Positions 1,568 through 59,957 of a stretch of DNA of 64,000 bases are shown piece by piece. The translations under genes and the position numbers were made by a program. This DNA comes from Bilabrum cf. latius (Eukaryota). The DNA is taken from assembly GCA_965178125.1 (NCBI GenBank), contig OZ237750.1, positions 248,001 to 312,000 of the forward strand, read 5' to 3'. How positions within the stretch are numbered: position 1 is the first letter of the stretch; each line of letters begins with the position of its first letter. A model generated the notes under the pieces. It searched no databases and was not told where the DNA came from. It saw nothing but the letters and a program-made list of their open reading frames with translations.

Positions 1568-1609
1568 AGTTAAAAATAAATAAATATCTTTAGTCTTAAT
1601 ATATTTATA

Positions 1610-5542: not shown

Positions 5543-5604
5543 GTCATTTTATATAAGGTATGTATTATTAAGTCTTATTAAGTTTTTTATTAATAAGTCA
5601 TAAT

Positions 5605-8403: not shown

Positions 8404-8433
8404 TCTAGTATATACTATACTAAAGATAATTTT

Positions 8434-8646
8434 TTAAGTCATTTTCTAGACGCACTATTTTGGCTTAAAGGATTGAGATGGATTTTCGCGCACAACTAGA
8501 GTATTTTTAAATTTTTCAATTTCTGCTGGGGATTTCCCGATTAGTAAATAACTTATAGTCTCTTGAAACTCTATTGGTAAGTCTTGTAATTGATGTATTG
8601 GTTTATTGATAACTTGATTATTTGATTTGGTATCTATTAAATCCAT
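8434..8646 (-). CDS. Small hypothetical protein, 70 aa
   Basis: Track ORF extended through TAGs to TAA; AT-rich CTTAA...TATAGTA leader. Confidence 0.45.
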
Positions 8647-8678
8647 TATTAATAATACTATAATAATAGAATATATTT

Positions 8679-8888
8679 TTAAGTCTTATTTAATCCTTCT
8701 GTATCTGGTTCATCCTTAACCTGTTTTCTCTTCTAATAGTACCCCTTCCATTTCTCTTGATTCTTTTGGTAATATTTCTATTTAGCTTTTTTAATAGCTT
8801 CTTTCTTTTTGGTCTCCTATTCCTTGAGTCTTTGATAATCTTCCATAATGTCTTGAACCTATTTTAATACATCTTTAATATCTGGCAT
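8679..8888 (-). CDS. Small basic helical viral protein, 69 aa (4 TAG)
   Basis: MPDIKDVLKQVQD...KKAKQKYYQKNQEKWKGYYQKRK; KYYxKNxEK-type motif is common in small proteins of large DNA viruses. Confidence 0.6.
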
Positions 8889-23023: not shown

Positions 23024-23646
23024 TCAGGTCTACGGACCGCTGGCGCCACCTTGCGAGCCACTGGCATCACCAGGACGTCGTCCTGGCGATGAAATATCAT
23101 CGAGAGACCGCGCAACGCGACCGCCCCCGCTGCTGCGATCAGCCCCCCACTCCCAGTCGCTGCCGAAGCTCGTACGGGGCGCAAGGCCAGCACCACCATC
23201 TCCAGCGCCAGGGCCCGCGCTCCCAGTTCCGTGCCGGACGGTGCTGGCACCCATCGGACTCCTCGCCAGGGTGCGCGGCGCCGCGCCTGCGGAACCAGGA
23301 AGTCCCTGGAAGGCGGCGCTGTTGCGACCCTCCGTAGTAGCCCGCCGCACGTCGCTCAGCCGGATTCGAACCCGCGGGATTGAACTGGGCGACGTGGGAG
23401 ACGGACCTGAGTCAGGCCCGAGCCCAACAGCCCGCCGCATGTCGCCCAGCCGGATTCGAACCCGCGGGATTGAACTGGGCGGTGTGCGAGACGAACCTGA
23501 GTCAGGCCCAAGCCCAACAGCCCGCCGCATGTCGCTCAGCCGGATTCGAACCTCCGGGACTGACCTGGGCGATGTGGGAGATGCACCTGAGTCAGGCACA
23601 GGCCCCGACCCCTGGCCCTGTGCCTGTGCCTGTGCCTGTGCCCGTG

Positions 23647-23698
<52 letters not shown>

Positions 23699-23836
23699 GC
23701 CCAAATCAGCCCCCGGAATGGGCACGGGCATCGACCCGCCCTCTGCCCCAGCGAGGGACTGGGAGCCCCCGGGGAGGGGCGGGTTGCGACGAGGCAGCAT
23801 CGCCCTCGTAACGCGAAGGTGAGGCCGCTCATCGGC

Positions 23837-23869
<33 letters not shown>

Positions 23870-26800: not shown

Positions 26801-28860
26801 GCACGCGCTGCTCGCAGACTGGAACGCGCGCATCGCATACACCGCCCCTGCAGACGTGGCTGCGTACACGGCGCTACCGTCGTGCTCCACCGCCACCCGG
26901 CCCACGAATGGGGACCCGGAGTCGGATATGCACCGCCACTGCGGCTGGCCCGTGGCTGCGTCCAGCGCCACCAGGGTCGACCCGAACGAAGCGAAGATCG
27001 ACGTGCCGCTGGGCTCGGCCGCAGCCGAGGATGAGGACGAGGACGGTGCAGGGGCAGACGGTGACGGGCCCGGGGTCGCAGAGGGCTGCTTCAGTTGGCC
27101 GGTCCTCATCTCCTCCTGTGCGGCGTCAAAGTCGAAGAACACCGGGCTGCCCGTGGCCCCACTGCTGCTGCGGTAGTTCCACAGAGACCCCGCAGAGGAC
27201 GGGTCCATGGCCAGCAGCAGCCGCTGGGACCCGCCCGTGGCCGCCAGCAGCACGCTGCCGTCAGGGGACAGCACGGGGGCGATGCCGCGCGGCGCCCCGG
27301 CCCCCAGGTTCCGCACCCACGCCGGCTCCACCTCAGTTGCCGTGTGTCGGAGAGCGTACATCAGCCCGCCCGCCGTCAGCACGAAGCTCACCGTGCCGTT
27401 GGCAGACACCACCGTCCCGGAGTCCACGCTCCTGGACGCCCGGCTGCCTTGCTGTGCGGGGAGCAGGAACGACTGCGCTGCAGTGGCGAAGTCGGTCACG
27501 TTGCCGCGGAAGAAGCCCGTGTTCTGCGCGTCTCTGCCGCTGGGCCACCCGTTGGACGTGGACGGCGGCACTGGGGGCACGGGCGAGGGGGAGGGGGCGG
27601 GCGGGGTGGGGCTCGGCTGGGGTGTCGGGGTGGGCGCGTTGCCCACGATGTCGTAGTTCAGCACGTACGTGTCGTTCTTCAAGCTGGAGTAAGCGATGCC
27701 CACCTGCACCCAGCCCAGCTTGCCGTGGAAGTCCTTCCAGTTGCCCTCGTCCACGGCGGTGGACAGCCGCAGGTTCAGCACGGGCTTGTCGCAGTACGGC
27801 GTCACGGGGTTGCTGAACTGGGTGCCCGGCGGGATGTTCCGCACAGAGCTCCAGTTGAAAGCGGGGTCTTGCAGATCCTGCAGCGATGGCCCGCGATTGA
27901 TTCCGCGCACGCCGCCCAACCGGTTGAAGTCGAAGAAGGAGAGGCCGCTGCCGGCCGGAACAGTGCTCGGCGCGTCCTCATCTTCGGCCCGCGTGTCCCA
28001 CAGGAGCCACTCTCCTGCCTTGCCATCCACGTACTCTGCATGCCCTCTTGCATAGATGGACTCGCCATTCAGCAGCGTGTTGTACCAGGACCCCGTATCA
28101 TCGGCGCCTTCCAACGCCGTGTACACGCTGATGTACCAGTCAGGATCGCCGGAATCCAGTGGAGTGCGGCTGGTGCTGAACCGAACATACTGCAATTTTC
28201 AATTGTATTTCAAAAGGACGAGGAAAGATGCATGGTTGATCCATTCTACTTGGAGCAGCGCGAGGTGACAGCCTGGAAACCACGAGTCCCACCGCCAACC
28301 TGAATCGGATCCCATAGCCTCATGCAGATGCGTTTGATTCTCACCTAGATGTCACGTACCGTTGTGAATCGACCAGTTAGACCTGTACCAAGCTTTGTCA
28401 GCCCGGGCGCCAGGTCAATGTAGGCCTGCAATGTTGGAATGCACGTTGATTGGTTCAGATTTCTAGTTCGCGCTATCGCTATCCAGCGCGCCACGTCCCC
28501 CCTGAATGAGGCCACACATTAAGCAAAGATGCTATCGCATATTCTCACTTTCTCGGTTGCATTGTTGATAAGGGAAGTGCTTCCGGAGCTCTGCGGGGGC
28601 GCGCCATCAGCCACCTCCAGCGAGTATGGCACTGTGGACAGCCCGGGACTTCCACCCTGGTTGAAGCTTGCAACATTCAAACCAATAGTAAAATTGACGA
28701 CGTGCCCGACTTCGGCTTCAGCCACTCTCTCGGTGAAAACAGGGCTGCCAATTTGTTCACCCAACCCGAATCGTTCTGCACGTTCTGCAGCTCCCGGCTT
28801 GCAAAAGGCCGTAGCGGCAAGTCCAGCCAGAAGAGTGACTACTTGAGCCACACACTTCAT
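23024..28860 (-). CDS. Large type I membrane protein, copy 2
   Basis: Near-identical core to copy 1, inverted; start MKCVAQVVTLLAGLAATAFC; track ORFs 26354, 25178, 23900 and 23030 share one frame; ends TGA. Confidence 0.8.
23619..23696. repeat. (TGTGCC)n microsatellite encoding poly-QA in copy 2
   Basis: About 13 units. Confidence 0.95.
24535..24830. repeat. 18-bp coding tandem repeat (GVGRVR / GDGRVR / GDGRAL)
   Basis: (CGCCTCGTACACGCCCAA)n and variants, more than a dozen units. Confidence 0.95.
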
Positions 28861-31213: not shown

Positions 31214-36404
<5,191 letters not shown>

Positions 36405-36883: not shown

Positions 36884-37480
36884 GGGGGGGACAACGGTGG
36901 TGGTAGGTACACCAAGCGTTGAGGACGAGGGCTACGCTACGCTCGCCCCTCCTTTAAAGGCATATTTAGCAACTCAAGTGTTTTCCCTATAAACCTAGAT
37001 GATTTCCCAAGGGGTTCCCCAAGAACCCCTATAGAACCCCTCTATGTACCCATTTTCAGATATAAAATTTACTCCTACGAAGTAGGGGTAAATTGAAGAA
37101 TTCTAATCTTTATCCCCCTTATAAACTCTAACAGCAAAGACAGAGATGTTTTAGTAAAGTAGGAAAAAATGAAGAAATTAACCAAGTGTCAAAAACCTCT
37201 CTGTGTTTGCTGTAGGAACGAAAGGATGAATTCCCAAGAGACCAAGAGACCAACCGAGGATTTTCCCAAGAGAACAAGGTATTTTATCAAGAGAACAAGG
37301 TAGTTACACCAAGCGACAAACCGATGAACCGACCGATGAACCGACCGATGAACCGACCAAGGATTTCCCAAGGATTTCCCAAGGATTTCCCAAGGATTTC
37401 CCAAGCGACTAAATTGTTCTCCGAAGCAACCAAACCGATTACCCAAGAGATGATACATTATAAGGAAAACGAAAACATAT
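36884..37480 (+). repeat. Left terminal inverted repeat of element 2
   Basis: Reverse complement of ~59366-59957; shuffled shared blocks extend to ~37780. Confidence 0.95.
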
Positions 37481-37966
37481 TTTAAGTCCCTTTGGAAAAG
37501 TCCCCCAAAAATTGAGAGATTTTACAGGTCAATTATAAGAGACTTAGAAAAAATAAATTAAGTTCCCAATTAAAATTAAATGTTGTAATTCCTATGATGC
37601 CACCATAAAAATTAAAAGGAAAATAAAAAACAAATTATAATTGTTTTCCAATTAAAAACACAAAAATTGATTGAAAAATTTTGACAATATAGGATACAAA
37701 GAAATATTAAAATTTATTTTCCAAGATGCTCGGGCTTTGCCCTCCGCTCTTTTGATATCTTTTTCAAAGATTGGATTTCCCAAGAGATGATAATTTAAGC
37801 CATTCTATATCACTATAGTAAATGAACCCATTTTTAAAGGAGTTGATGATAGAGCATATTGTCAAGCAAATTAATCCACGTATTTGGAAAAAATTACACG
37901 AAAAACTAAAGGAATACAAGAAGCTCGGGCTTTGATATAAGTAGAAGACTATACTATAAAGTACTT

Positions 37967-38251
37967 ATGAAGCCACATACCTACGATTTTGAAAAGGTTG
38001 TTGAAAATTTTCAATTTAAAGCACCCTCAAGACGCAAGAATAAGAAGTATGATGTTTTTGACGAAAATGATGAATATATTACATCGTTTGGTGATAGGCG
38101 GTATTAGCAATTTTACGATAGAATAGGGTATTACAGCCATTTAAATCATTTAGATACGGACCGCCAATTTAGATACTTCAAACGACACGATATCGAAGTA
38201 AAACCAAGAACCCCAAAGTTCTTCTCACATTTTTACCTTTGGAGTTCATAA
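37967..38251 (+). CDS. Conserved small viral protein, 94 aa
   Basis: SRRKNKKYDV..FGDRRY(Q)QFYD..HLD..RYFKRH..FSHFYLW, a motif pattern I recognise from giant viruses and virophages. Confidence 0.7.
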
Positions 38252-38782
38252 ATGACACGTCAATAAATACACTAATTCATCAGGATTTAATGTATGTTTC
38301 TTACAAACCTTATCCACCCACTTTTTATACTAATTAGCGTTTTTCGCTCTATTCCAAAGACGAACTATACAATGTCTCCCGCAGGTTGCTATATCCATTC
38401 CATCCGCCTAAAACTAATATGGGTTATAGTCAATCTTATACGGAGAATGATACATTAAATAAATTAACTCAGGGTCTTCATAAAAACGTTTCCGCACGCT
38501 TTCACTCATCGTACTCTATTGCCTATCAGGACGAATTCCGTAACTGTCAAAGAAGTATACAGTACCCTTACGCTTAAATAAGCACACCCAGTGTCCAGAA
38601 TTTATTTCTTCTTGGTATAGAATGATACAACAATTACAACGACTAAATAATCCATCAATACTATTGTACTATCCTAATTCTGTATATGGAACGATGTTTA
38701 CCGACGTAGGAAGAAACCCCTTAATATTTGGTGGATTTTGGAGGAGAACACGAATATCACTATCGCTAAGAGCATAATCCAT
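38246..38782 (-). CDS. Adenain-like maturation cysteine protease, 178 aa with TAG=Gln
   Basis: GHWVCL (His), FFDSYG (Asp), YNPY(Q)F(Q)ADGMDIATCGRHC (Gln, Cys); ends TGA; missed by the ORF track. Confidence 0.9.
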
Positions 38783-38972: not shown

Positions 38973-39875
38973 ATGGCACATTTTTCTTGGAAGGAAACTA
39001 CAAAATCAACACCCATCGCATACGATACACACGGAAAACGTATTTTATACACAGCGGAAAACACAGACAACCAATTTGGAGATGATAGTGTTACATTCTA
39101 GGATTTTCAAGTATCATCACTTACAGGGAAAAGATTTCCGCAGAGGAAAATGGATTTATTAGCACGACACTTAATCAAACAGGTCGAACCCCTAGACGAA
39201 GACATCAAATACTTGTATGAAAAAGCATAGGAAAAGAAACATAAAGAGATTACATTAAAATAGGGTGAATTCCAATCATTACCAAATCCAAACGGAAGAG
39301 AGGTAATATATATCACCGCACCATCAGGTGCTGGGAAGTCTACTTGGGTTTCCAAGTATGCTAAGAATTATCATAGAATGTTTCCAAACAGGAGAATTAT
39401 TTTATTTTCACGAGTATAGTAGGATAAAGTCTTAGATGAAGTGAAAGGACTGAAAAGGATTATTTTAAATGAGGAACTGGTGGAGAACCCGATTGATATT
39501 CATTAGGAATTAAGGGACGCCTTAGTAATCTTGGATGATATTGATACAATCAAAGATAAAAAATTAAGGGAAGCCCTCAATCATTTACAGGATGAAATAT
39601 TATAGGTTGGTCGCCACTCAAATACTTCAGTATTAATCACAAGTCATTTATCCACCAACTATAAAAGTACCCGTATTATTCTTGCGGAAAGTCATAAGTT
39701 CGTTATATTCCCTTAGTGTTCTTCCGCACATTCTCTAAGGTATTTACTAAAAAATTATATTGGACTTGAGAAACAAGAAATCTCTAAAGTCCTAAAAATG
39801 CCTTCTCGGTGGGTTTGTGTTCATAGGAATTACCCGAGGTATTTAATTGGAGAAAGGTAGGCTTACCTTCTATAA
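38973..39875 (+). CDS. FtsK-HerA family DNA packaging ATPase, 300 aa with TAG=Gln
   Basis: YITAPSGAGKST (Walker A), LVILDDID (Walker B), IL(Q)VGRH, ITSH, ESH, SRWV; ends TAA; missed by the ORF track. Confidence 0.92.
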
Positions 39876-42053: not shown

Positions 42054-43163
42054 ATGAGTTCTCCAGACCGATTTTACATTACCGCAAACATACGAAATAA
42101 CGAAGATACTTTTTAGCCAGCAACCTATAGCGAAACCCGCAAGTAGCCATTATTAGATAAAGATGTTGGTGATTATACGATGTCAGTATTCCGGTTTTCC
42201 ATAAGCACCAATTCAATACCTTTATGGGTTCCACACATAGAAACCGATAAAGTGAAAAATCCATCTTCAAATCCTAATCAAACGGTGTATAGAATAAGCA
42301 TTACAGATGAAGACGGAGTAAGTTTGTGGACCTCAAGCATTCAGTGGAGACCCTAGTTAACAGGGGAAAACCAACCATCTTTTTCCAATCCTATGTAGTT
42401 TGTTCCTTATTATTATATGTATTCCGTGTAGCATTTTGTTGATTTATTCAACGAAACCATATAGAATGCTTTATCAGCGGATATTACATCAGTTCCGGTT
42501 TTACTCTTTAAAGATGGAAAGTTCAGTTTAGTAGCAAATCCCGATTACGACGAGGAAAACTCAGGACAAAAATTTAAATTAGTGTTGAATGAAGCCCTTA
42601 ACGAACTGATGACGGGTTTTCCTATGGAACGAATGGATATCCAAGATGACGACTTATACGCCAGTATTCTATTCAAAACCCTAGGAACCAATGTTTTATT
42701 CGATGATGGCTCTTCTGTTGGAAAATATGAACCTTAGGCATACTTCGAGGGAAACCCAACGGGAGACTACAGATTAATGATGACCTAGGAACGAGGGAGT
42801 TTAGTGTAGTTTTAGATTTTTCGCGGAATAGTTTTCACATCTTCAAGTCTTCCAGTGAGGAGTGAGGCAATATCCTAGAAATCCGCCTATGGACAATCCA
42901 CAAATACAGATTAGAATTCAGGTTCAGGGACCGAGAGTTTATTAGTGGATATGGACTGTGTATTAGATGACACTGAAACAGTTAATTAGTAGGTTCTTCA
43001 ATACCAGCCCCATATTCTCCACGAAATTGATTTTTTAGATACACATTCAGTAGATAGGATTTAGTTTAATCTTTATTGGAAAGATAATTATTCAAATCTA
43101 AGACCTCTTTATTTACGCCACGGAAGTGTGAGTGTGAAGTTTTTAATTTAGAAACGGAAGTGA
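42054..43163 (+). CDS. Virophage minor capsid (penton) protein, 369 aa with TAG=Gln
   Basis: DYTMSVFRFSISTNSIPLW and LYWKDNYSNLRPLYL..SVSVKFLI motifs; ends TGA. Confidence 0.85.
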
Positions 43164-43268: not shown

Positions 43269-45035
43269 ATGTCATTGAATACCTTTGCCCTTCAGCCAGT
43301 CAAAGTATCACCCGCAACACTAGATGTACAACCGAAGCCGTATGAAGTTCAAGAAGGTTATGAGAACCGGACTTTCCGTAAATATAACCCCTCCGGGTCT
43401 GCCGGAAACTACAACAGCGGGGTCAACTGGAATATTAGTATGCCTTCAGGTGTAGGTTTGTGCCGTCGTGCCTATGTCTCGTGCCGATTTTCTATCACCT
43501 TTTCCGTGAATAATCAAACCGCAGGTGGTCTAGCACCCTTTAGACCAGATTACGATGCTCCACGCTCCTATCCACTTAATCGCTCCATCGCAACATAGAC
43601 AGTTGGCATTAATAACCTTCGCTATACCCAGAACAACGGCGAACTAATGGACGCTCTGTCCCATTTACTAGATGATGATGTCCACCGTGTGAATTGCCTT
43701 GATAGTGTGTATAGACGCGATAATGTGCCTTCATACGCGATGATGAGTTAGTCTACGAATAACGCTCTTGCTTCGTATGAGGACGTGCTTTAGGACCAAC
43801 CAGCCCGAGGAAGTGGATTTTACAATTTGTATCAAATGGATAATACTGATGTACCCGCAGGTCAAACTCAAAATCGTGTTCTTGTTTTTGAATGCACTGA
43901 GGCGGTATTATGTCCACCTTTCCACTACGAAAGTAAATAGGAACAAACGGCTATATACGGAATTCAAACACTCTCCTTAAATATTAATTGGTCTCAACTG
44001 AGTAGAACCGTGTGGTCTCGTATTCCACAATAGGGCTTAACTGCTACCATTTAGTCGGTAGATGTCCAAGAACCAGTCCTATACCTTGAATAGATTACAC
44101 CTAAAACAGGATTTGTGCTTCCTAAATAGGTCTCGTATGATATTTTTGAGATGACTTCGTATACCCAAAGTCATAGTCCAACAATTGCCGCAGGTACTAC
44201 AGCAACTCTTTACAATAACAATATTAAGCTTAGTAATTCAGTTCCAAGTCGTTTATTTGTGTTTGCCCGTCGCTCACCTACAACCCTTTCAGTAGATTAG
44301 GGAAACACATTCATGGCAATTGATGGAATTAGTATAGAGATGAATAACCATAGTGGATTACTCGCCGACGCATCGCCACAGCAGTTATGGGACTTATCCA
44401 GAAGCAACGGACTTGAATAGCAATATAATGAATGGGCTATGCGTAAATTCGGGGATAGGGTGCTATCAGGTGGTCTGTTATGTATTGACCCCGCCAAGGA
44501 CTTAAGCTTAGATGTGGATTAGACAAATGGTAGCAACGGGTCTAACCAACTGTCTATAACCCTACGAGTGAAGAATAATGATGATGTGGGCTACGATAAT
44601 GTGTAGTGTGTTGTGATTGGATTATACGAAGGAGTATTAAATTTGATTGATGGGTCTAAGTTCGAGTATTAGCAGGGTGTCATCTCACGGGCAGATGTTC
44701 TTTCCGCCTCTAAATTACCCGTAGTATATGAAAGTCAATTAAGCGGACTACACGGTAGGGGTCTTGGTAAAAAGATTAGACACGCCTTAAAAAAGTTCGC
44801 ACACAAAACCGCTGATTGGGTAAAGAAAGGCAATCTCAAAAAAGTATTAAAGGATGGTAAGTAGGTATTTGACACCGCTAAAATGGTGGGTGAAATGGCT
44901 GGAATGGGTCGCCAAAGGAAACCCCGAAAAACTACCAAGAAAGGCAAGGGCTTAACAGGTGCCAAGTTAGGCTCGGGCTTAACAGGTGGGAAATCTTTAT
45001 CTCGTAACCAACTACTCGCAATGTTGTAGCAGTGA
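43269..45035 (+). CDS. Virophage major capsid protein, 588 aa with TAG=Gln
   Basis: DAPRSYPLNRSI, VPSRLFVF, LWDLSRSNGL, CIDPAKDLSL; Gly-motif basic C-terminal tail; ends TGA. Confidence 0.9.
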
Positions 45036-45708: not shown

Positions 45709-46956
45709 GTTTTTTAATACAAGCCTATACTAAATGGATAGTTTTTATACACTTAGTGGCGGAAAAATGAATTCTGGTTTTGTTAAGACGTACATTAGTG
45801 TGAAAGAACCAAAGAGTAAAACAACAAGGACTTGGAGAAGTGAATATCCTTATTCTAAAGAAGCTCTTGAAAAAGCAATTAAGTTTGAAGATGGTCTGGG
45901 AACAAAAGGAAAACCCAAAAAGAAATCCAAGAAGAAATCCACACAATCCAACACACTTCATAAATATTTAAAAGATGGTTTGCGAAGCACCCCCTCTCGG
46001 CGCAGTTAGCTGGCGCAACAGCTTAAAGGTGGAGTAGTGTATGGAAATACAAACGAAGTCCAGAGAAATCTTCAACAATACGGGGATAGAACAATCATTG
46101 CTATGAAAGTAATTAGAACCCCTATTAGTGGTGCGATTAATCGGTTACTCAACTGGATAACCTTGGGAAAAATGAAAAAACTAAAAAATAAACACGGATA
46201 TAATGATTTCTTCCATTTAGCCTTAGAATTGAACCTTGGAGGTGGAAAAAAGATTTATCTTGAGAAGAATGAGAGGGTTAATTTGTCCCCACGATTTTCC
46301 ACCAACAAGAAAACTCAAACTATGGAAGTAAATATTAATGGAAAACCTCAGAAAACAGTAAGGGAATTATTTGAGACCACTTTACAGAAAATTGGAGAAT
46401 ACAACTTTTATCAGTACCGTGCTTTTAGTCTGAACTGCCAAAAATTTATCCAAGATGTTCTGCGCACAAATGGGTTTTTGACACCACCCTTAAACCAATT
46501 TATTATGTAGGACGTAGAGAGTATTGCTAAGAGTGTATCGGGATTTACTAAGAGAGTTGCTAATGCTGCTACTGACGTCGCTGGGTATTTTTCCAAATGG
46601 TTCGGGAGAGGTTTAGATGATTTACCGGAAGATGTCAGAAACGCCTTAATGAAAAATTAGAAAAAGCATAAGTAGAACACAGAAAGGGATTTTGGAACAG
46701 ACTTTAAGGAAGGTTGGGATTTAGCAACTAAAACAGTTGGAAAACCAATTATTGATCCTAACGCCGGATGGGGTTCGGTGTTGATGCCAGAGTGGGAGCG
46801 CGTGAACGTCTCGTTGCGTTCCGATGGCGGTTGCGACCGGGAAGGTGCGACCAAGCCAACGGATTGCTTGCGATGACGCGCATACCCTCTCTGTGTTCAG
46901 GAGAGGGGCGGAGATTGGGTAATTTTTGAAGAAAGTTCCTGCTCCGTTCATTTAAC

Positions 46957-49900
46957 ATGAACGGCGCCGGTAGCCATCGGATCGACCCGGCGGCGCGGGC
47001 ACCTGGAAGCGCCAGGGTGATCGCCGCAGCTGCAGTGTTCGCTCGCGCGGTAGGCCAACCTGCGGTCACGTTGGCCGATTTAGCTACTCGATATGGTATG
47101 AATGATGCTGTGTTCTCGGATTTCATTGCTCGTCTCAACGTGCAGCGCGACACCATGGCGCCTCGAGATCTTGATCTTCAACGTGCACACGATGCGGGGT
47201 TCCTGTGCTATTTGCTCGACAGGTACTCATCAAAGCAGTCCTTCACGGCATCACGGTCCATTAATGCTGTCAAGAGCACCGCTCTCGCCAAGTTCGTGTC
47301 AAATGGGACGCTAACGACTCTCGGTGCACGGCTGCTTCTGCCGGCATCGCCGAGCTCCCCTCGACGGCAACAGCCTGAGCGACTCGCAGGACAAGTACGT
47401 CTTCATCATGTTCAGCAATCTCCAGAGGCTCCTTCTTCAATCGAGTCTCCATGGTCCCTGAGTTCACTACCGACGGGCCGGCGGACAGCTCCTCTTAGCG
47501 GACGGCATCGGCCACCAGGACGCCTCGACTTCGGCGCCGCCATCCATGCTTCACCTGGACGCGACCGAACGGCGTAGAGTGCCACCAGGACAGGCCGCGG
47601 AATTTCGCCCTTGCGGGCGCGGCCAGGCTCTTCGACGACGCGGCAGGCCCCGCTCGCGCGCGGCGGGCGGGCCCACCTGCACGCGTCCCCGAACCGCGGG
47701 CCCCCGGGGACAGCAGCAGATACCCAGCGCAGCGCCCAGCCCAACTTCTCAACGTCTTCACCCCCGCGGCACCAACCTCCACCTGCCTCGAGCATGATCC
47801 CCGGTAGACCAGGCACTCGGGACTTCGGCGATCCGACAGTGCTCGCGGAGGCGCTCAGCAGTGCAGCATCACGGTCAACGGGCCCGGCAGGCCCTCAGCT
47901 TCTTCTTCCTCGTGTGTCTCCGGCTTACGACTCCCCCGGCGTGACTCCGGGCACCAGCCGCTAGCTTGACGCGGTCTGGGGCCGCCTTCCTGGGGATCTC
48001 CAACGGGCAGTGTTGCACTCCACGACGCTGCGGGGAACGGCCGACCCAGCGACAATTCTGCATCTACGCCTGTTTGCGCTGTGGCACAGCATTCCGACTC
48101 TGCGCCAGGAAGAGCTGCTGTCGCGCCTCTCCGCCCACGTGGAATTACAATGGTACTTCTCGCACCGACTGGCAGCCTCGATGCACTCATCCCCGCCACC
48201 GGTCGACGCTACACCCGCTCCTCAGCCACCCCGTGAACCTCCTGTGTCATCTTCTGCCTCACCGCAGCCTGCGTCTTCAATTGACCCAGTTTCACCGGGC
48301 GCAGGCACGGCAGTGGACTCCGCGGCCGTTCGCTCGCAACCAGTGGAGATTTTGTAGCGTGAGGCCTCTGCACCTTCAATCGCTGCAATTCGAATGCAGA
48401 ATTGGTTTTCTGATGATTTCTTGGCAACGTTGACCTCGATCTTTCGCCAATCCGCGTTCATGCCGCGGTTTTGCTAGGCTGACGCGCTTCATTTGGACGC
48501 TAGCGGCCGCGATTTCGCTGCAGAACTGGCCCGTGCTCTGTTTGGTCAGGCCGTGACGAGAGCCAAGATTGAATCGGCTATTTTCTCGTTCACGAGCCGG
48601 CTTCATGCAGCTCTGCCGATGAGCAATGCTAGTTTTGGGAAGTTCGATGCGTCCAACTCGGAGTCGTCTGCTGCAGGCGGACGAGAAAAGTAGGTGCCAT
48701 CTAGCGAGTTACTATGCACTATTTACTCGGCTATTTCCTTTGCTTTAGGCTGTGTGCTCGTGCGCGCTGCTTGCGTGCATTCGGCGGCGTCCTTGCCGTC
48801 CTGGTTGCCGCAGGGCAGCAGCTCGTGGTCGTGTCCAGCATCACTAGTGCCCGATTGGAAAACCCTGGGGCAGGTTCGCAATGATTTTCTTCGTTTGGTT
48901 AGTGCTTCCGGGGCATCATCTGCATCGGCGTCCCGACTAGAGGTGGTGTTTGCCGCTGTGTGTGTGATACCACGCGGAAGTTCAGCCTTTGAGATGCTCT
49001 CCTCCCATGCTTGGCGCCATACAGGCGAACGCTGTGACGTTGAGATTCGTGACCTTGTTGGGAATGAGATTCCTTCGTGCTCTTCTGGCGACTGCATGCG
49101 TCTCCTACAATTGCTGCATCCGTGGGCCACTGAGGCATGCAGATCAGGCGAACCTGGCCTCGTGCGCGGACTGCTACAGGGAGTCCAGGCTGACATGCAG
49201 GCGCCGTCCCGTCGAGCAGCACTGTCCCGTCACTTCGACCCCCGCGGGGGCAGTGGAGGCCGGGGCAGTGGAGGCGGGGGCAGTGGAGGCTCCAGGCGCA
49301 GTGGGGGCGACAGCGACCAGCCCAGTACCGATCGTGGCGGAGGTCGACACCGTCGAGGCCGTGGACGTGGCGGTGCAGGCCAGCAAGGTGGCCAGCACCA
49401 GCGTGCGGACCGGCAGGACGGGGGTTCCACCAGGAAGTCCAAGGAGCCTTCACCTGACCCTCCCCCACGAGGTACGTCACGTCAGAGCCAGCCCAGCACT
49501 CCAACACCAACACTGCCGCAGGGGCGTACGCAGACTACCACCACATCGGACGCGTGTGCTGCTTCCACACCACCTGTCACGTCAACGCCCGCGCTTCACC
49601 CAGTCCTGGTGGCCCTAGCGCGCCCTAAGCGACCGCAGCGGCCGCCCACGGCGTCATCCACGAGGCTGCCAGGTAGGACGGACATCTCTCCAGCATTCGT
49701 TGACTGGGCATATCCAGCTCCGGATCCAAGCCATGAGTGGGCAGGGACGACAGCACCCTCCGTAGAGGACTTCATCCAGCGAAAGGACGATCACCAGCGT
49801 ACCAGAGACTGTCCCGGCGAATTCGTGGAGGCTCCAGCTGCGACGTGGGACCGTGAGCGGATCCACCTGAAGGTTCACGAAGACCCGCTGGCATTCACGC

Positions 49901-52716
49901 CACGCAAGTACTTCGACAAGGTGCCTCGCTAGACTGCAACACTGCGGACTCGGCGGGAGGTTCTGTTTGGCGGCCGCACACCGAGGAAGGCCCCGTCCCT
50001 TGCCGAGTTCAAAGCCCTCCCACGAGTCGAGCGTGTACTGGCAGCACTGAACTATGGTTGCCCCCTAGCCATCGTGGACGAGGTGCCCAAAGAGCACGAT
50101 CTAGACTACAAGGACCGTAAGCTGTCTCCGGAAGAAAAGTGGGAGATCGCCTGCGAGATCGGGCGCTCCATGCGGGCTGGCGAGCGTGACTTCGTGTCAC
50201 CCAAAGATTTCGACACAGCCCGGGCCCGGCCGCTGGTGATCCCCAAGAAGGACTCGACAAAGCTACGGTTCCTTCAGGACTCCTCACTCAAGGTGAACGG
50301 CCAGCGTACCGGTCTGAACAAGGCCATCGACTACAGTGCAGCCACGCCTGTGCAGCAGACGAGCAGCATGGACGTGCTGCGCTCGGCAGCCGCAGCAGTT
50401 CGATCCTGCCCCAAGCGTGCCAGCGGATACGTCGTCGACATTTCCTCGTACTTTCGGGTCCTGCCGGTGGCAGTGGAGGATCTCCAATACAACCTGATCA
50501 AGCTGCCCGACGGGCGCATCGTGCAAGACTTCAGGCTCTCTATGGGCAGCTCATCATCTCCCGCGTTCGCAACTACGATCAGTTCGGCTTTGGCCCAAGC
50601 CCTCGAGGAGCAGTCCATTGGCAGGGCCATGCGACCCGGACGGAGACACAAGCAGAAGCAACGACGCCGGCAGCAGCAGCACGCCAACGCCCAATCCAGC
50701 ACGACGGACCAGGCGCCCCAGGCGAACTCGTCAGCAACGTCCACCCCGCCTGCCGCTAGCACGACAACGGGACAGGTCAAGACGGCCCAAGACTAGTCCC
50801 GCCATTGGTAGGTCGAAAATGAGGTGTTTGTAGATGACTTTGCCTGCCTCGGCGGAGATCACGAAGTCGATGCATGGGCAATTCGAGCCATGGGGCAGCT
50901 GGACTCCACAAACTTCCCCGTCAGCATCTCGAAAGCATTGAAGCAAGGGGCCCCAGCCCCGGTGTTCGAGTACTTGGGCCTCACCTACGACTTGATCAAA
51001 CACGAGGTGCGGTGCCCTAAGGACAAGGCCACCGACGTCCTGCGCAGACTGCACGAGGCACTCACGACGAAGGGGATGCTGCTGTCTAGCTTTGAGACCT
51101 TGGTCGGCAAGTTGTCCTTCCTGTCGGGCGCACTTTATGGTATGCGCGGTGCTCTACGTCCCCTGTATGACGCCAAGGGCTGGGCCCTTCACAAGTAGGC
51201 CAGCCGGTCACGACCAGGTGAGGTGTGGGTCCCCACCTCCTTCGTGTCCAAGGGTGGCTTCACAGTTGGGGAAATCCTCGAGGGATTCCAGGTGGCTATC
51301 CAGCGCAAAGGCGGGCGCAGTTTTCCGATGCGGGGCACCATTGACTGTCCCATCATTCGCACTGATGCGTCGGTGACAGGCTACGGCGCCGAGCTACTTC
51401 TCCACGACACGGACGGAAACATCACATCGCACACCGGCATCCACGGCACTTGGCCGCATCGCCTAGAGGCGAAGGATGTAGCGGCGGCAGAACTTGCAAC
51501 ATGTTTGTTGGCACTGGCGCATTGGCGACAGCACCTGCGTGGACGTGTGGTGCGTTTGTGGTGTGATAATGATGCTTCCGTGTAGCTGATACGCTACGGC
51601 AGACCCAAGAGCCACATCATGGCAGCCTTACTTCGCCCTATCTTCGTACTGCAGACAACGCAAGATGTGCAGATTCACGTGAAACACATTCCTGGCGAGG
51701 ACAACATCGTTGCGGACGCTTTGAGCCGCGGCTCACAGGAGGCATACACGCACCTGGACGCGGTGTATCAGGTCGACTGTCCCACGCCGATCTGGAGGAC
51801 CTTGTACAAGCACGACCATTTCACGCTGGTGGCCACTCTGGACTCAGTGGGTTGCGCACGGCGTGGGGGCACTTCGACAACTTCCTCACGTGGTACGACA
51901 TCGACCGCAGCTTCATGGACGGGCATCTTCCAGCAGCTCGCAGACTCTTCGCGTTCAGGCTCAATGCAGCGCTCTCGAGATTTGCAGTCTTCTTAGGGGA
52001 ATGTTCGCCTCTCAGTGGCGGCACCATCGCTACATACACCAGAAATGCCTAGCGAGTCGTCATCGAGTCCACAGGAGCGTGCGGCGTCCCACGGTCAAGC
52101 TAGCTCGACAGCATCCTCCGGTACTACCACAAAGCATCGCCATCGGCGCACCCGTTGCGTCGATCTTCAGCCCCACTCCGCGCAATCCGACGGTGTTTCT
52201 CGACAGCCGGTTGCAGCACAACAGAGTAGGCTGCTCGGGCAGCTGTCTGTCTCTGCTTCTGTGGGGGCCTCCGGCTGGGAGAGCTCGTCGGTGCGTCCAG
52301 ACGACAAGCCGGCCTCCAATGGCAGCAAGTGCAGTTCATCACGCGAGACGGACGCATCCATGGTGTTGCCATCCGCCTGGGCCTCCACAAAGCCGACGGT
52401 CCAGCCAAGTTCTCCATCCAAGCCGCAGAGCCCATCGCAGTCCATTGCAGAGCCGGACGATGGGCAGTCACAGGCAGCAGGTTCTGCGGCGTGCGAGCCT
52501 TCGTGGCGTGGGCAGCAGCGAGCCACGCCCCAACTGCAGGCGCAGACGAAGACTACGCCCGGTAGCTGGCGCTCAGCTGCCCCACGTCAGGGCCAGTCTT
52601 CGTGGCGAACACGAAGCCGATCGTCAAGGCGCAGGTCGTACGGGCGCTCCGCAGCTTCTGCTCACGAGAAGTTGCAGGAGCGGTGCACGGACATTCCATC
52701 CGCATCGCGGCAGTGA
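46957..52716 (+). CDS. Ngaro gag-like + reverse transcriptase + RNase H polyprotein, 1919 aa with TAG=Gln
   Basis: Ten track ORFs in one frame separated only by 11 TAGs; IPKKDSTKLRFLQD, VDISSYF, LSMGSSSSP, FVDD, YLGL, RTDAS, AELAT, CDN, HIPGEDNIVADALSR; ends TGA. Confidence 0.85.
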
Positions 52717-52910
52717 TGTGTTTGGACCGTGCTGGGGTCGCCTTCGAGGTCATTAGGCGATTCGGCAGATGGAAGTCGGCATCTGCATGCGAGGTGTACT
52801 TGCGGGGCGTCAGGGAAGGCTTGCCTCCTCTGGAGCTCGGCGGCAGGAGCCTCGATTTGAACAGGCCAGTGTGGGTGCTGGCCAGCGCGCTGCGGCTGAA
52901 CTTGGAGTGA
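51573..52910 (+). CDS. Ngaro tyrosine recombinase (overlapping frame, no ATG before the catalytic domain)
   Basis: GLRLGEL (R), GLHKAD (K), HSIR (HxxR), GRWKS (W), EVYLR (Y); frame open from 51573 with TAG=Gln; ends TGA. Confidence 0.85.
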
Positions 52911-53635
52911 GCCACACAGCCGCAGCGTACAAGACATGGCGGTAAGATTTGGCGGAGTAGTGCACGTGCTCTTCCCAGCCCCGGTCAGTCCGGTCAAGGG
53001 TAGCGCACAGGCACAGCTTTGTCAGGTCTTGCCATGTCTGATTGTTAACGAGACTAGGTTGCGCGTACACTCTGGCATCATGATCCTAACGCCGGATGGG
53101 GTTCGGTGTTGATGCCAGAGTGGGAGCGCGTGAACGTCTCGTTGCGTTCCGATGGCGGTTGCGACCGGGAAGGTGCGACCAAGCCAACGGATTGCTTGCG
53201 ATGACGCGCATACCCTCTCTGTGTTCAGGAGAGGGGCGGAGATTGGGTAATTTTTGCCCACCCTCCCAACCCCCTCCTCCTCGGCGGAGTAGTGCACGTG
53301 CTCTTCCCAGCCCCGGTCAGTCCGGTCAAGGGTAGCGCACAGGCACAGCTTTGTCAGGTCTTGCCATGTCTGATTGTTAACGAGACTAGGTTGCGCGTAC
53401 ACTCTGGCATCAGAAAGAAATCCATTCGCATACGAATGACCCAGTATCGGGTATGTATCTGGAATTATTTGGAGGTCAATGTCAGTGTGAAACCAAACGT
53501 TCAAGAGTTATGAAAATGGCGTCCATTTTAAGAGGAAAAGGAATATCCAAGAAGAATGCCCTAAAACAGGCTTGGAAAATATTTGCCTACGATACTTAAA
53601 TCTAACTCTATAGTATAATACTATAGAATACAAAA

Positions 53636-53909: not shown

Positions 53910-55751
53910 TCAATCTTTTCTAAAAAGTTTCTTCTTACTGTGAATAATTTGACATTCACCTGATTGCTCCAACTTCATACCCCCAAGGTTCGTTGACAAC
54001 TTTAGAGGTAATTCTTTCTCACTAATGAAACCATCCGTATTGACATAGTGAATGTTTTCAAGATATGGCTCAATCATTTTGGACAATTTACTTCGTCCAA
54101 GTCCAGTCAGAAAGGGACCTATTCTTGCGTAGGCTGTTTTGTAATCGTACTCTTCGTCATAGAGTGTACCCGATACAAGTCGTCCAGATGCTTTAGGATA
54201 CGCGTTCTTTAATTGTCTAAAATTCATACAATCACCATCTCGGAGTGTTTTTGTGATTGTGTTTTTCTAACATAGAGAACCCCAGATGTTGTTCAGTATC
54301 TCTTTCGCACACTTCAATCCCTATTTTTTATAACCGTACAATCGCTCAATCATCGTTTTGAACAGTCCATTTGCCTTCACCCTTGTTGTCTCATCGTAAA
54401 GTAAAGCGTTGGCTTCTCCGTCTTCAATAAGTGACACCTAAGCGCCCGTCTCAATCGCTCGGTTGATGTCATATTGAGTATAATAATTGTTTTTTCTTTT
54501 TTGTACCAATTTAGAATTGATATTTTCAATATGTACCCTAAAAATGCCGTACGGATAGAAACCACTTGAAGGTACTTCAAATTTTACGAACTTACCCCTT
54601 CTAACCGGAAATGTAAATGTACCCTTCATAATACTTGGATAAAATGAGTTAATATCGTACTGGTATGCGTTTTTTAATGTAGTATTCTTGTTTGCCCAAT
54701 TCAATCCACCACCCGAGGCTTTAGAAATCCATAGTGCTTCAACTTGGTCAATCGGGTCGGCAGGGTAAAGTTTGGAAAACTTACTGAAATACGACTTTAC
54801 AAATAGGGATGTTCTAAACATAAATCGTGATAAATCCATATATCCACCCGTCTCCTTTGATAAAGCCCTTACATTTTTCATCCGTTCTTCGTGTTTTGTT
54901 CGTAGTTCTTCCTTGGATTTAACGTCAAGGATGAAATTCTCCTTAAAAACCGATGTAATGCCTTCTGATTGATATTCACGGTCTCCATCAAATAGTAAAT
55001 AAGAATTCTCGGATTGATACAAGCGGGTTATTAGTCTACACGGTTCTTTAGACGGCGGTGTAAATAATTCTTTCTAACTAATGGGGGGAACATACTTGTA
55101 ATGCCCATTTGTTAATGAAACAGTTAGAAGACGGTCAAAATGAGTTTTTCCAGATGTGTATTCAAAGTCGCCTACAACATGAATGCGTAATTCAAGTTCG
55201 TCTTCTATCTCTGGTATTCTTCTGTAATCGATTGGGTCATCACGCCCAATTTTCAAGAGTTCTTTGAGGTCGGACTTCGACAATCTTTTAATAGTAGTTT
55301 TCCATTTGCCTTTTGCGTTCTTTACATTTACCTTACGACCAACTGAAAAAGGAAAAGCCTATTTTATAGCGTTATATAAACAATCGTTATGTTCGTCAGC
55401 ACCGCCTTCTGGTTCTGGCTTTCTAATAAGCAGTAGTTCAAAAGAATTCAATTTTCTATATTCGTCGTCATCGTCGTCTTCGTAACCCGCCCATAAACTA
55501 TCTTGATTTTCTAAATCATCTGTAGTAATCCAAGTGCTTCTTGTTCGCCAACCTGTATCTTGAAAATTGATATTCACCTTAAATTTAAAGTCATCAAACG
55601 GATTTTCACCACCATCGTCGTAATCACGAATAAATTCCAAGACATCTTTTACGGTGATAAGGTCCTCGCTCTCAAATCGCATACTCCATATTGGTTTCCC
55701 ATTAAGACGCAATTTGGTTCTTTGGGGTTCCATAAAATCGATTTCGGGCAT
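53910..55751 (-). CDS. polB: Protein-primed-type family B DNA polymerase, 613 aa with TAG=Gln
   Basis: YQYDINSFYPS, AKEILNNIWG, YVNTDGF; four track ORFs in one frame; ends TGA. Confidence 0.9.
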
Positions 55752-55808: not shown

Positions 55809-57470
55809 TCACTTCTCAATTTTACAGAGGAATTTAGAAAGTTTCCCTTTTTTGTTCTTTGGTGGGTTCTCTTTTATCCATTTTTGAATAGCGATGCTAT
55901 TCTCAACACTCAGCTGTTTCTGGATTTTCTTATGGACTTTTTCCGTCGGTGTAATCTCCTTTTCTAATTCCAACTATTCAATCGTTTCCTACTGCTATGC
56001 GACTTGTTTCTGTAGTTCTCTTATCTACTCTCGAAGAACATCTACCTCGGATTTTGCTTTTTCCATCTCAGCAGAATGACGAAGTGCCTAAAATTTAGAT
56101 TGGAAGCCTTTTAGTAAGTCTGCGTGTTTCACATTAAATTCTTGTTTTCTCTATTTGTTCATCGTTGAATGAACACCCACCTCTGACAATAGTGTTTTAA
56201 TCATAGGTGTACCAAGGTTCTTCACTCTACCGTTCAGTTCCTACTTTAGATAATTGCGGAATTCCAAGACTGTCATTTTAAAATCTCTGCCTTCGTCCAG
56301 CCACTCTTCTTTTAGAATTTTTAAAACCGGATGTGCGCCATCAAGAATTCCTTTGTAAAAATTCTTTGATTTTGGTGCGAATTGTCCTGTAAAGTCTGGT
56401 GATGTATCATAGATTTCAACCAATAACATATAAAATGCCTTAGCCACTTCTGGATTTTCTGTAAAACGTTTTAGTGTTGTAAAGTATTCTTTGTCTCCTT
56501 TCTTAGATGTATTCACATCCAAAACACAATATCTACGGATTTCCTCGGTGATTTTGATTGGACTATCATTCGTATCAATAATTAAATTGAATGTATTGGG
56601 ACGACTTTCGGATTTGACAAACTTCTCATTACATGAAAAGTGTTTTTCCGTAATAAGATTTCTTAGCGTTGCCTACATGGCGTCCCAAATAGTTTGCGAG
56701 GCTTTTGGAATTTCATTAAAATTGACTAATAGTTTCCCGTCCAGAATTGAGTTGAAGGCGTCGGGTTGAAGCATCTTGTGTGTAAGCGTCTATAGTGTAA
56801 GGGTATATCCGAGTAGTTTTCTCATAAGGAAGGTAATAATCATCGATTTACCAGTTCCTTGTGGAGATTTCAAATATAGTGCTGTACCCAACTTCTTTCC
56901 GCCCACAATAACGTGAGCCAACCATTTCATCACAAAATCACACTATTCTTTGTCTTCTGAAGTCCACACCTTCTGGATATGTTCATAAATCATAGTCGCG
57001 CCTGCTTTTGCGTCTTCGGATAAATCCTCTATGTTTCCACAGTTTTCCCGTGTAAGTATAGGTGAACCCATAACGTTAATTGTTTGATTGTCGTAATCCA
57101 CGGTAGGTGAATTGAATTTTCTTACAATCGTAAATACGTCGGTATTCTCATTTAAGAACCAGTCTCGTGCTGACCAAGTCTTTACTCTTTTGTTGCCCAC
57201 AATCGCGTATATACAGTGTCCCCCAATCAGGTAATTTTCAGTAATATTTTTATTCGTAAGGAACTACCAGACTGGTTTCTGGGGTTCGTCATCACTTATG
57301 TTATTCCGATTTAATTCAGATGCTATTAGAAAATACACCCCGCCACCTTGCTCGTGGGTGCGGTAGAAGTATTGTTTAAGGTATTGAATACATTCCTCTT
57401 GTTTTCCGGCATTACATAGGTCCATAAGGCTTTTTGACGAATACGCTTTAGTCGGCAGAGTGAATGACAT
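55809..57470 (-). CDS. Superfamily 3 (D5-like) helicase, 553 aa with TAG=Gln
   Basis: LYLKSPQGTGKS, LLVNFNE, FNLIIDTN, IRRY; C-terminal coiled coil; ends TGA. Confidence 0.85.
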
Positions 57471-57527: not shown

Positions 57528-58583
57528 TCAATTTTCTATATCCCACTCCAAAATTAAATTAGGAGCAATTTCTTGGATTTTATTCTTTGGTTCCCACGTC
57601 CAATGTTCTGGTTCTGGAAAATCTTTCCATTCTATTTGATATTCTGTTTCGTTCTCGGATTTTATCTTTTTTGGGATAAAAATTGTCTGAGCATCTCGAT
57701 TATTGTCCTCATTATCAAAGTCGATAATCTGTAATTCCTCTTTTGGATAAGCCACTAAATCATCCTAATCCACAACATATAAGGGTGGTTGTCCGGGTCT
57801 TAATAACACTTTTGTAACCGTTTTGATTTCTGGATTATAGCGTAAATCGGAAGCACGAAAATTTCCGGATAATTTTTGCTGTAAATTTGTAGCCTTTCTG
57901 GGTTCTTCTAAAGGTATTCTTACGCGTGTCCCTTCTTCCAATACATTACAAGCGTCTCCTTTGCACTACGTAAAGTCGAAGTGTTCTGGGGGTAAAGGTG
58001 GTTCTTCCATATATTTTTCCAGTTGATATTCATTATAGTTTTCGATGATGTTTGGGAGCATATCCACCCATTCTACGCTTTCATTACCTGTATTTAACTC
58101 ATTTACGTTCTGTAGGGTAAATATGGCTTTTCCCAACGTTTTATTTAAGTTTTCCACTAATGCCTGTTGACGATGGCGACCTGGTTTATTTCTTCGTACA
58201 AATACGTCGGTCTCTTCTAAATATCTTTGTAAAGCATTGAATTCTTTTCCATTATCTATTTCCAAACGGTACTGCGGTTTCTGGACATTTCCACGATTGA
58301 AAATCTTTTTTGATGCCTTTAATACTTCGTTCTAACGCTTGGTTTTGAGCGGTTCAGCATCGGCCTACTTTGTGTGTAAATCAATAGCGGTTAATGCGTA
58401 TTTATAATTCTTGTCGTGGGGTAATGATAATAAATCCATTTGTACCACTTGGTGAGGTTCTGGTACATTTACGTGGGGTCTATTTACTCCTTTGGGTCGT
58501 TTTGGTCGTTTCATTAAATTTACAATACGACTGTTGGGATAAATGTTTAGGGATTGTAATATTCTTTCAAAGGCGCTACTCAT
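57528..58583 (-). CDS. rve retroviral-type integrase with C-terminal chromodomain, 351 aa with TAG=Gln
   Basis: VQMDLL, LTAID, IDNGKEF, QALVENLNKTL (DDE); YQIEWKDF..WTWEP; same architecture as the mavirus integrase. Confidence 0.92.
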
Positions 58584-58648
58584 TTGCTATATAGTTGTAT
58601 CATTCTCCTTACTTTTGTAAAGTAGGGAAAATAATTCTTGGGAAAAAA

Positions 58649-58888
58649 TCATTTGGTTTTGGTACTTTCGTGCCATTCAACTACAATTTGACTTAAATCT
58701 GTAGCCTCCTCAAAGTCAGCAAGCAGGTCATCGTCATCATCATAATTAATCCAAATAATAGTCTTTGTAAATTCAAGGTACTTTTTGGCCATATCGTATG
58801 CTTCTCGTGTTGTAATAAACGGGACTGATTTAAGACATTCTTTGGTCGCCAAGATGTAATTCTCGAGTTCCTTTTGTGATTTTGCCAT
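58649..58888 (-). CDS. Hypothetical protein, 79 aa
   Basis: MAKSQKELENY..., preceded by the same leader motif as the helicase gene. Confidence 0.6.
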   Translation of the reverse strand: MAKSQKELENYILATKECLKSVPFITTREAYDMAKKYLEFTKTIIWINYDDDDDLLADFEEATDLSQIVVEWHESTKTK

Positions 58889-59365
58889 TTTTGTGGTTGT
58901 ACTATAGACTACGTAAGTTATGCTTAAGGTACGACATTTCCACTTTAGGCCATCAATTTTTGCGTTTTTAATTAGGGAGTTGGAAAACATTTATAATTTG
59001 TTTTTTATTTTCCTTTTGATTTTTATGGTGGCATCATAGGAGTTACAACATTTAATTTTAATCTTTGAAAAAGATATCAAAAGAGCGGAGGGCAAAGCCC
59101 GAGCATCTTGGGAACTTAATTTATTCTTTCTAAGTCTCTTATAATTGACCTGTAAAATTGACAAGTTTTTTGGGGACTTTTCGAAAGGGACTTAAAATAC
59201 GTTTTCGTTTTCCTTTTAATTTTAATGGTGGCATCATTGGAATTATAACATTTAATTTTAATTGGAAAATATATTTATTCTTTCTAAGTCTCTTATAATT
59301 GACCTGTCAAATCTCTCAATTTTTGGGGGACTTTTCCAAAGGGACTTAAAATACAATTATAATTT

Positions 59366-59957
59366 GTTTTCGTTTTCCTTATAATGTATCATCTCTTGGG
59401 TAATCGGTTTGGTTGCTTCGGAGAACAATTTAGTCGCTTGGGAAATCCTTGGGAAATCCTTGGGAAATCCTTGGGAAATCCTTGGGAAATCCTTGGTCGG
59501 TTCATCGGTCGGTTCATCGGTTTGTCGCTTGGTGTAACTACCTTGTTCTCTTGATAAAATACCTTGTTCTCTTGGGAAAATCCTCGGTTGGTCTCTTGGT
59601 CTCTTGGGAATTCATCCTTTCGTTCCTACAGCAAACACAGAGAGGTTTTTGACACTTGGTTAATTTCTTCATTTTTTCCTACTTTACTAAAACATCTCTG
59701 TCTTTGCTGTTAGAGTTTATAAGGGGGATAAAGATTAGAATTCTTCAATTTACCCCTACTTCGTAGGAGTAAATTTTATATCTGAAAATGGGTACATAGA
59801 GGGGTTCTATAGGGGTTCTTGGGGAACCCCTTGGGAAATCATCTAGGTTTATAGGGAAAACACTTGAGTTGCTAAATATGCCTTTAAAGGAGGGGCGAGC
59901 GTAGCGTAGCCCTCGTCCTCAACGCTTGGTGTACCTACCACCACCGTTGTCCCCCCC
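59366..59957 (-). repeat. Right terminal inverted repeat of element 2
   Basis: Reverse complement of 36884-37480; shuffled shared blocks extend to ~58980. Confidence 0.95.

Follow-up and report, generated by a model that had tools for sequence, protein, structure and literature searches.

Does a stop codon encode a key residue of the active site in a viral protease? The question is raised by a gene on the minus strand (38246..38782) of a stretch of 64,000 nucleotides from Bilabrum cf. latius (GenBank assembly GCA_965178125.1, contig OZ237750.1, positions 248,001 to 312,000), which was analyzed as a whole and is referred to here as the window. The gene lies within an endogenous mavirus-type virophage (36884-59957) that is bounded by terminal inverted repeats (TIRs) and carries Sputnik-type capsid genes, and it is annotated as encoding the virophage maturation cysteine protease. 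Five in-frame TAG codons interrupt it, one of which occupies a column that is glutamine in nearly all homologues. We find that TAG most probably encodes glutamine, with TAA and TGA as stops, in a host code that the virophage also uses. The gene product is very probably a clan CE adenain-like maturation protease of the MEROPS C120 'mavirus peptidase' type, in which one TAG gives the oxyanion-hole residue Gln125.

A protease gene with five in-frame TAG codons

The gene starts with ATG, ends with TGA and encodes 178 amino acids. Under table 11, translation of 38246-38782 on the minus strand gives ...YNPY*F*ADGMDIATCGRHC... with five breaks, every one of them TAG; with standard decoding the product would end at residue 37. 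Read as glutamine, TAG accounts for 5/8 of the glutamine codons. The two TAG codons of the YNPY*F* stretch, at 38414..38416 (residue 123) and 38408..38410 (residue 125), are present exactly as an initial annotation of this DNA had reported. The other three, likewise on the minus strand, are at 38669..38671 (residue 38), 38516..38518 (residue 89) and 38330..38332 (residue 151). A variant copy of the gene, recovered in contigs of four public runs from two studies, differs at 17 bases between 38257 and 38783, all of them outside the five TAG codons. Since the TAGs are unchanged in a variant copy from independent runs, they are real and do not reflect an assembly slip. The variant copy has 12 non-synonymous-site versus 5 synonymous differences, counts that are too small for an inference of selection.

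We established the family membership of the protein via sequence searches. A full HMMER scan of 1.84 billion representative proteins with a cut-off of E<=1e-3 returned 2638 relatives, the best at 4.5e-48. A profile search added 442 further candidates, one of which is named by its source as 'putative cysteine protease [Lake Baikal virophage 3]', and 13 IMG/VR virophage contigs carry relatives of the protease. The mavirus and Sputnik protease sequences themselves were among the matches of none of the searches. The protein had no match in PHROGs and none by tblastn against the phage collection, and phmmer against the PDB gave spurious summed WD40 matches only. Nothing was found when the major capsid protein (MCP) and ATPase were sought as related loci in viral contigs, or P0262 and P0312 in metagenome contigs. 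The homologues, the named relative from Lake Baikal virophage 3 and the neighboring capsid and ATPase genes bear out the identification of the gene, made in the initial annotation, as that of a virophage maturation protease. The virophage context is settled by the gene neighbors, namely the packaging ATPase, penton, MCP, type B DNA polymerase, helicase, integrase and TIRs.

Conservation was counted over 258 homologues, leaving out one database protein that is 96% identical to the protease (P0155). Column 125 contains Gln in 255 homologues, Glu in 2 and a gap in 1, and a smaller set of 150 representatives gave the same picture (Gln 148, Glu 1, gap 1). At the DNA level, the residue is encoded by CAA in 12 and CAG in 1 of the IMG/VR virophage contigs (13/13), and these same 13 protease genes have no in-frame stop. 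Column 125 is the sole Gln column that is >=85% conserved among the 178 residues. Three of the other TAG codons fall in variable columns: residue 123 (K 90, Q 68, P 28, R 18, D 15), residue 38 (K 82, N 70, D 29, Q 21) and residue 151 (E 85, Q 57, K 45, D 31). Thus, the claim that TAG occupies an invariant Gln column holds for 38408-38410 and fails for 38414-38416. The chance of five randomly placed codons hitting column 125 is about 5/178 = 0.03. Once TAG is accepted as glutamine, its presence at any particular glutamine is unremarkable. The remaining TAG, at residue 89, is in a column that is mostly Leu among homologues (L 155, K 35, F 23, I 12, Q 9 in 255 homologues). If TAG is glutamine, residue 89 would be polar in a lineage where most relatives have a hydrophobic residue.

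Residue 125 in the clan CE catalytic pattern

Clan CE proteases have the catalytic order His, Asp/Glu/Asn, Gln, Cys. The protease has the order His-Asp-Gln-Cys, with all four residues conserved and a Trp after the His. The catalytic His candidate is His64 (CAC, 38591..38593, minus strand; conserved in 257/258), followed by Trp65 (236/258). Asp79 (GAC, 38546..38548, minus strand; 240/258) is the candidate third member of the triad, and Cys134 (TGC, 38381..38383, minus strand; 257/258) is the nucleophile candidate, followed by Gly135 (257/258). Further conserved residues over the same set are T133 (247), R141 (252) and D168 (253). Residue 125 is situated nine residues upstream of the conserved Cys134-Gly135. 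The spacing from Gln to Cys is 9 in 227/255 members and 6-8 in 17.

We compared the family with solved structures through two profiles. The profile of short-loop members (A2) was built from 16 of the 17, leaving out the 698-aa P0083. Searched against the PDB at E<=10, it gave 10 matches, 10/10 of them to adenovirus protease or to Chlamydia Dub1/Dub2, at E-values of 0.2-2 that are all weak (5hag 0.2, 4piq 0.32, 1avp 0.99). The A2 alignment places His64, Asp79, Gln125 and Cys134 onto residues 54 (His54), 71, 115 and 122 (Cys122) of 4piq, and the equivalent H, D, Q and C-G of 5hag are matched likewise. We take adenain residues 54, 71 (Glu71) and 122 to be the catalytic triad and Gln115 to be the oxyanion-hole residue. 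An alignment with adenovirus proteases had been proposed as a check on the TAG column, and it sets column 125 onto Gln115 of the adenovirus chains, with weak E-values. The full-family profile (A1) matched SdeA only, at E 0.11. One member aligned to the SdeA DUB domain from the GHW motif, which coincides with His64, to the Cys at E 0.066; in SdeA chain 6wtg, an Ala at the Cys position is matched to Cys134. P0103 on its own hit only an unrelated SSB in the PDB (E 1.4) and was set aside. Among 116 members, sub-threshold Pfam matches included the clan CE families Peptidase_C57 (3), SidE_DUB (3), Peptidase_C5 (2), Peptidase_C48 (2) and RickCE (1), mixed with unrelated chance matches.

On this indirect evidence, we consider it highly probable that residue 125 is the oxyanion-hole Gln. 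In clan CE this Gln forms the oxyanion hole, and a Trp following the catalytic His is associated with Gly-Gly specificity, according to passages in one source (PMC6759571). Gln125, which would correspond to adenovirus Gln115, is proposed to stabilize the tetrahedral oxyanion through the amide of its side chain, acting with the main-chain NH of Cys134. The capsid protein would be cleaved by the triad Cys134/His64/Asp79 at GG|X or GX|G sites within its basic C-terminal tail. The oxyanion-hole role, the enzyme activity and the substrate are all putative. The initial annotation had stated the oxyanion-hole role as a fact; the alignments are consistent with it, and the wording was too strong for a role derived from matches at E 0.2-1 and from knowledge of clan CE. 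Its mention of a 'working' protease was likewise overstated, as the element copy has one gene split by a retroelement.

Several points weigh against our reading of the enzyme, and those that concern the codon are given with its meaning below. The protease protein has no Pfam match at E<=10. PF00770, the adenain model, was found in 0/5 virophage records, and the best family member (P0103, 18.1 bits) scored below its gathering cut-off of 21.3 bits. The matches to solved clan CE structures are individually non-significant (E 0.066-2). The usual Gln-Cys spacing is 9, versus 7 in the adenovirus protease chain, and the Gln lies in a gap of the SdeA alignment. N120 is conserved in 246/258 homologues, which would in principle allow some other residue to line the oxyanion hole. 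In addition, one virophage gene of the element is split by a retroelement, and the variant copy gives no clear sign of purifying selection on the protease. Because of the weak E-values and the failure of the Pfam adenain model, we hold the oxyanion-hole assignment below proof.

Gln125 might instead be conserved for substrate binding, loop packing or a dimer contact, with the oxyanion hole formed by Asn120 or by backbone amides. TAG would then still be glutamine, and only the label 'catalytic' would be wrong. The conservation of N120 would fit such an arrangement, as would the difference in spacing, the weak alignments to solved clan CE chains and the SdeA alignment, which matches the conserved Asn and leaves the Gln in the gap. 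We nevertheless regard it as unlikely, since the Gln persists where the loop is shorter (17 members, spacing 6-8), the short-loop profile aligns it with adenovirus Gln115 and with the Gln before Cys-Gly in ChlaDub1 along with His, Asp and Cys, and it is the sole strongly conserved Gln of the family.

The meaning of TAG in virophage and host genes

To read the code from the window as a whole, we collected statistics from 20 virophage open reading frames (ORFs) of two elements, comprising 6767 codons. In-frame TAG occurs 118 times, and in-frame TAA and TGA occur 0 times each. The ORFs terminate with TAA (9) or TGA (11) and never with TAG, and the off-frame counts are TAA 497 and TGA 420 versus TAG 294. 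In-frame TAG is found in 17/20 of the ORFs, which would therefore be truncated under the standard code. Taken as glutamine, TAG makes up 118/341 of the virophage Gln codons. Viral dependence on the code, which had been tied to the single protease codon, is thus real, but it is genome-wide rather than site-specific.

To rank the possible meanings of TAG, we calculated a likelihood from substitution profiles for 28 TAG columns, drawn from the protease, ATPase and MCP. Gln came first (-75.9), followed by Glu (-78.3) and Lys (-83.1), with Leu last of the 20 residues (-111.5), and the order was unchanged on dropping column 125. This column is the only strongly conserved one among the 28 evaluable TAG columns, so that 'strongest single-site evidence' for glutamine, as the initial annotation had put it, is a fair description. 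The TAG in column 125 is the best single-site evidence for Gln. In a comparison with 8 close homologues (42-59% identity), Gln was faced by 24/75 TAG sites versus 34/92 CAA/CAG sites, and by 12% of Glu sites and 4% of Lys sites. P0155 has Gln at all five TAG positions of the protease and was rejected as independent evidence. It differs at seven positions, all shared with the variant copy in which the TAGs are kept, which indicates that its Gln residues are TAG read by a gene caller. The public collection also contains P0309, the MCP of a near-identical copy of the element (100% over 81% of its length). Since P0155 and P0309 carry Gln at TAG, a TAG=Gln table has already been applied to this or a sister assembly.

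Three GC-rich host paralogues in the window have the same pattern. They encode large proteins with a thrombospondin type-1 domain (TSP1 match) and are located at 17581-22734 (plus strand), 23024-28195 (minus strand) and 31242-35738 (minus strand). They are 1498-1723 codons long, with 3-4 in-frame TAG each, TGA stops, and 0 in-frame TGA versus 53-63 off-frame. At well-aligned positions, TAG stands opposite CAG twice and TAC once. TAG provides 11/292 of the Gln codons in the three host genes, and its share of Gln codons is about 35% in the virophages (elements 1-10000 and 36884-59957) versus about 4% in the host genes seen. No tRNA gene was found in the 64-kb window. In the mechanism that we propose, the host would read UAG as Gln and UAA/UGA as stops, and the virophage, writing about one third of its Gln as TAG, would be translated on host ribosomes with a host tRNA-Gln(CUA).

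Some observations tell against glutamine. Gln leads Glu by only 2.4 log-likelihood units, so the evidence from variable sites is modest. Column 89 is dominated by Leu, and Glu occupies column 125 in two homologues, indicating that it is tolerated there at least occasionally. Some database proteins among the close homologues may themselves be TAG-read, P0155 being one.

A reading of TAG as glutamate, or as a mixture of Gln and Glu, would draw on its second place in the likelihood ranking and on the Glu-rich TAG columns (ATPase 211 with E 37 and Q 10, ATPase 178 with E 26, and protease 151). It would also fit the Glu at column 125 in 2/257 homologues. That same column has Gln in 255, and Gln is found opposite 32% of TAG sites and 37% of CAA/CAG sites but opposite 12% of Glu sites. 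In the host paralogues TAG is opposite CAG twice and opposite GAG only once, in an unaligned tail. We therefore judge glutamate very unlikely. If TAG were a true stop, the element would be a set of decayed pseudogenes or an assembly artefact; it is indeed endogenous, with one gene interrupted by a retroelement, and a published survey warns of assembly errors behind many stops in endogenous viral genes (PMC10120064). This is extremely improbable given 118 in-frame TAG against 0 TAA/TGA in 6767 codons, even though off-frame TAA and TGA are commoner than TAG, and given the recurrence of the TAGs in contigs from 2 studies (4 runs), TIR cores that are 100% identical, and the same depletion in host genes (in-frame TGA 0 versus 53-63 off-frame). 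Leucine, as in the rhizarian exLh code, would suit protease column 89 (155/255), and a nuclear code with UAG=Leu and UAA/UGA stops exists (PMC5304391), but its likelihood is the worst of the 20 residues (-111.5 versus -75.9 for Gln) and it occurs at column 125 in 0/257 homologues, which leaves it next to no credibility.

Comparison with known systems

Virophage PRO proteins are described as adenain-like, C5-family or clan CE in passages of several papers (PMC9952930, PMC3671162, PMC6048507), and MEROPS C120 'mavirus peptidase' is listed beside C5, C57, C63 and C48 in part of another (PMC10318531). The present protease resembles mavirus MVP (C120) and virophage PRO (Sputnik V9, OLV7, MV16) in its size of about 170-190 aa, in the conserved series His-Trp, Asp, Gln, Cys-Gly, and in having packaging ATPase, penton and MCP genes alongside. 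Unlike them, it uses TAG as a sense codon for 5/8 of its Gln codons. Its nearest named relative is the Lake Baikal virophage protein. As in mavirus, the C-terminal tail of the MCP is basic, and its GxG/GG motifs resemble the MVP cleavage sites given in a passage of PMC6048507. With adenain (C5, 1avp/4piq), the protease shares the aligned positions of His, Asp/Glu, Gln and Cys, the placement of the Gln a few residues before Cys-Gly, and a role as capsid maturation enzyme, which is putative here. It differs from adenain in being missed by PF00770 and in a Gln-Cys loop that is usually 2 residues longer, and the two match at E 0.3-1.

Endogenous viral elements of Streblomastix strix use the host TAA/TAG=Gln code, as one passage reports (PMC10120064). 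Like the present element, they are integrated small DNA viruses that bear the reassigned stop codon of their host. They differ in the code, since here the reassignment is confined to TAG, with TAA and TGA as terminators, and in kind, being a metamonad PLV-like group, while the present virus is a Sputnik/mavirus-type virophage. A code with UAG alone as Gln and with UAA/UGA stops is described for Iotanema spirale (PMC5304391). NCBI table 15 and the Iotanema spirale code agree with the present case in having UAG as sense, UAA/UGA as stops and Gln as the best fit; unlike in those, the present host DNA is about 65-70% G+C.

Significance of the reassigned codon

The UAG-only=Gln code is already known, and the value of the protease TAG is that it is the best anchor of codon meaning. 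It is a DNA-verified anchor, at a near-invariant Gln of catalytic type that is CAA/CAG in 13/13 standard-code relatives. As an enzyme the protease is unexceptional within its known family, and the TAG at its key Gln follows from the host code. Since that code is also the host's own, the use of TAG is what a virus resident there would be expected to show. In practice, a TAG=Gln table is required for annotating the genome together with the viruses resident in it. The window also documents Sputnik/mavirus-type virophages under UAG-only reassignment. Full-text literature searches returned no report of virophages under a reassigned UAG, the nearest being the Streblomastix elements as described in passages of PMC10120064.

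According to a 2026 giant-virus catalogue, which makes no mention of virophages, every giant virus isolated so far was obtained from a host with the standard code (PMC13524828). As the isolates all derive from standard-code hosts, a host genome with code-matched virophages is a useful lead. A UAG=Gln giant-virus system in which the code acts as a host-range barrier is possible. A fuller version, in which the window holds the host and virophage members of a three-way system with a giant virus, all with UAG=Gln and UAA/UGA=stop, and in which at least two unrelated virophage lineages are deeply adapted to that code, is a tentative proposal that we place somewhat on the doubtful side. If it is true, these virophage lineages would be unable to make any full-length core protein in a standard-code cell, the genetic code itself would be a host-range barrier for virophages, and GC-rich protists of this kind would be indicated as a host for the giant-virus genomes that are best read with TAG as sense and for which no host is known.

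The virophage element and its surroundings

The element has a G+C content of about 33-43%, versus about 65-70% in the surrounding DNA. Its left TIR is at 36884..37772 and its right TIR at 58980..59957, both recognized from inverted repeats (I1-I7 for the left one), and their 468-nt core is 100% identical (complementary). Direct repeats of 61-93 nt, 86-89% identical, are found inside the TIRs (59002-59354 and 37457-37772). Adjoining the protease gene in divergent orientation is the gene for an FtsK/HerA-type packaging ATPase (38973..39875, plus strand), supported by P-loop Pfam matches and 48 homologues and containing 9 in-frame TAG. On the other side of the protease gene lies a small ORF with a DUF5754 domain (PF19058; 37967-38251, plus strand), which is convergent with it, the two 3' ends overlapping by 6 bases. 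In several homologues (P0129, P0054, P0038, P0175 and P0190), DUF5754 and the protease form a single fusion protein.

The capsid genes are on the plus strand. The penton, or minor capsid protein (42054..43163), matches PF21507 (Sputnik V18/19) with 36.9 bits over a cut-off of 27 and has 16 in-frame TAG. The MCP (43269..45035) matches PF21915 and PF22031 above cut-off and has 15 in-frame TAG. In translation, the last ~90 residues at its C-terminus (44700-45035) are strongly basic and contain several GxG and GG motifs. The mavirus protease cleaves the C-terminal domain of its MCP, with GG|X / GX|G site motifs, as a passage in PMC6048507 describes, and by analogy the basic tail of the present MCP is a likely substrate of the protease. 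The replication and integration genes are on the minus strand and encode a protein-primed type B DNA polymerase (53910..55751; PF03175), a D5/VapE-like helicase (55809..57470; PF19263, PF05272) and an rve integrase with a chromodomain (57528..58676; PF00665, PF00385).

The GC-rich retroelement (46753..53412, plus strand) inside the virophage contains a 1919-aa ORF with an RNase H-like domain (PF13456) and 11 in-frame TAG. Its direct repeats of 176 nt (46753-46928 and 53081-53256) are 100% identical, and a further repeat pair of 130 nt is at 52951-53080 and 53283-53412. It interrupts the 3' part of the virophage ORF at 45734-46876, of which the last codons and the TGA stop are retroelement sequence.

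A second, unrelated low-GC virophage-like element occupies positions 1-10000 and is cut by the start of the window. No copy of the protease was seen within its in-window part. It contains a penton-like ORF (641-1567; 5 in-frame TAG), an MCP (1610-3496; PF22031; 6 in-frame TAG) and a primase-helicase (5605-8403, minus strand; PF09250; 11 in-frame TAG), all three of which end in TAA or TGA.

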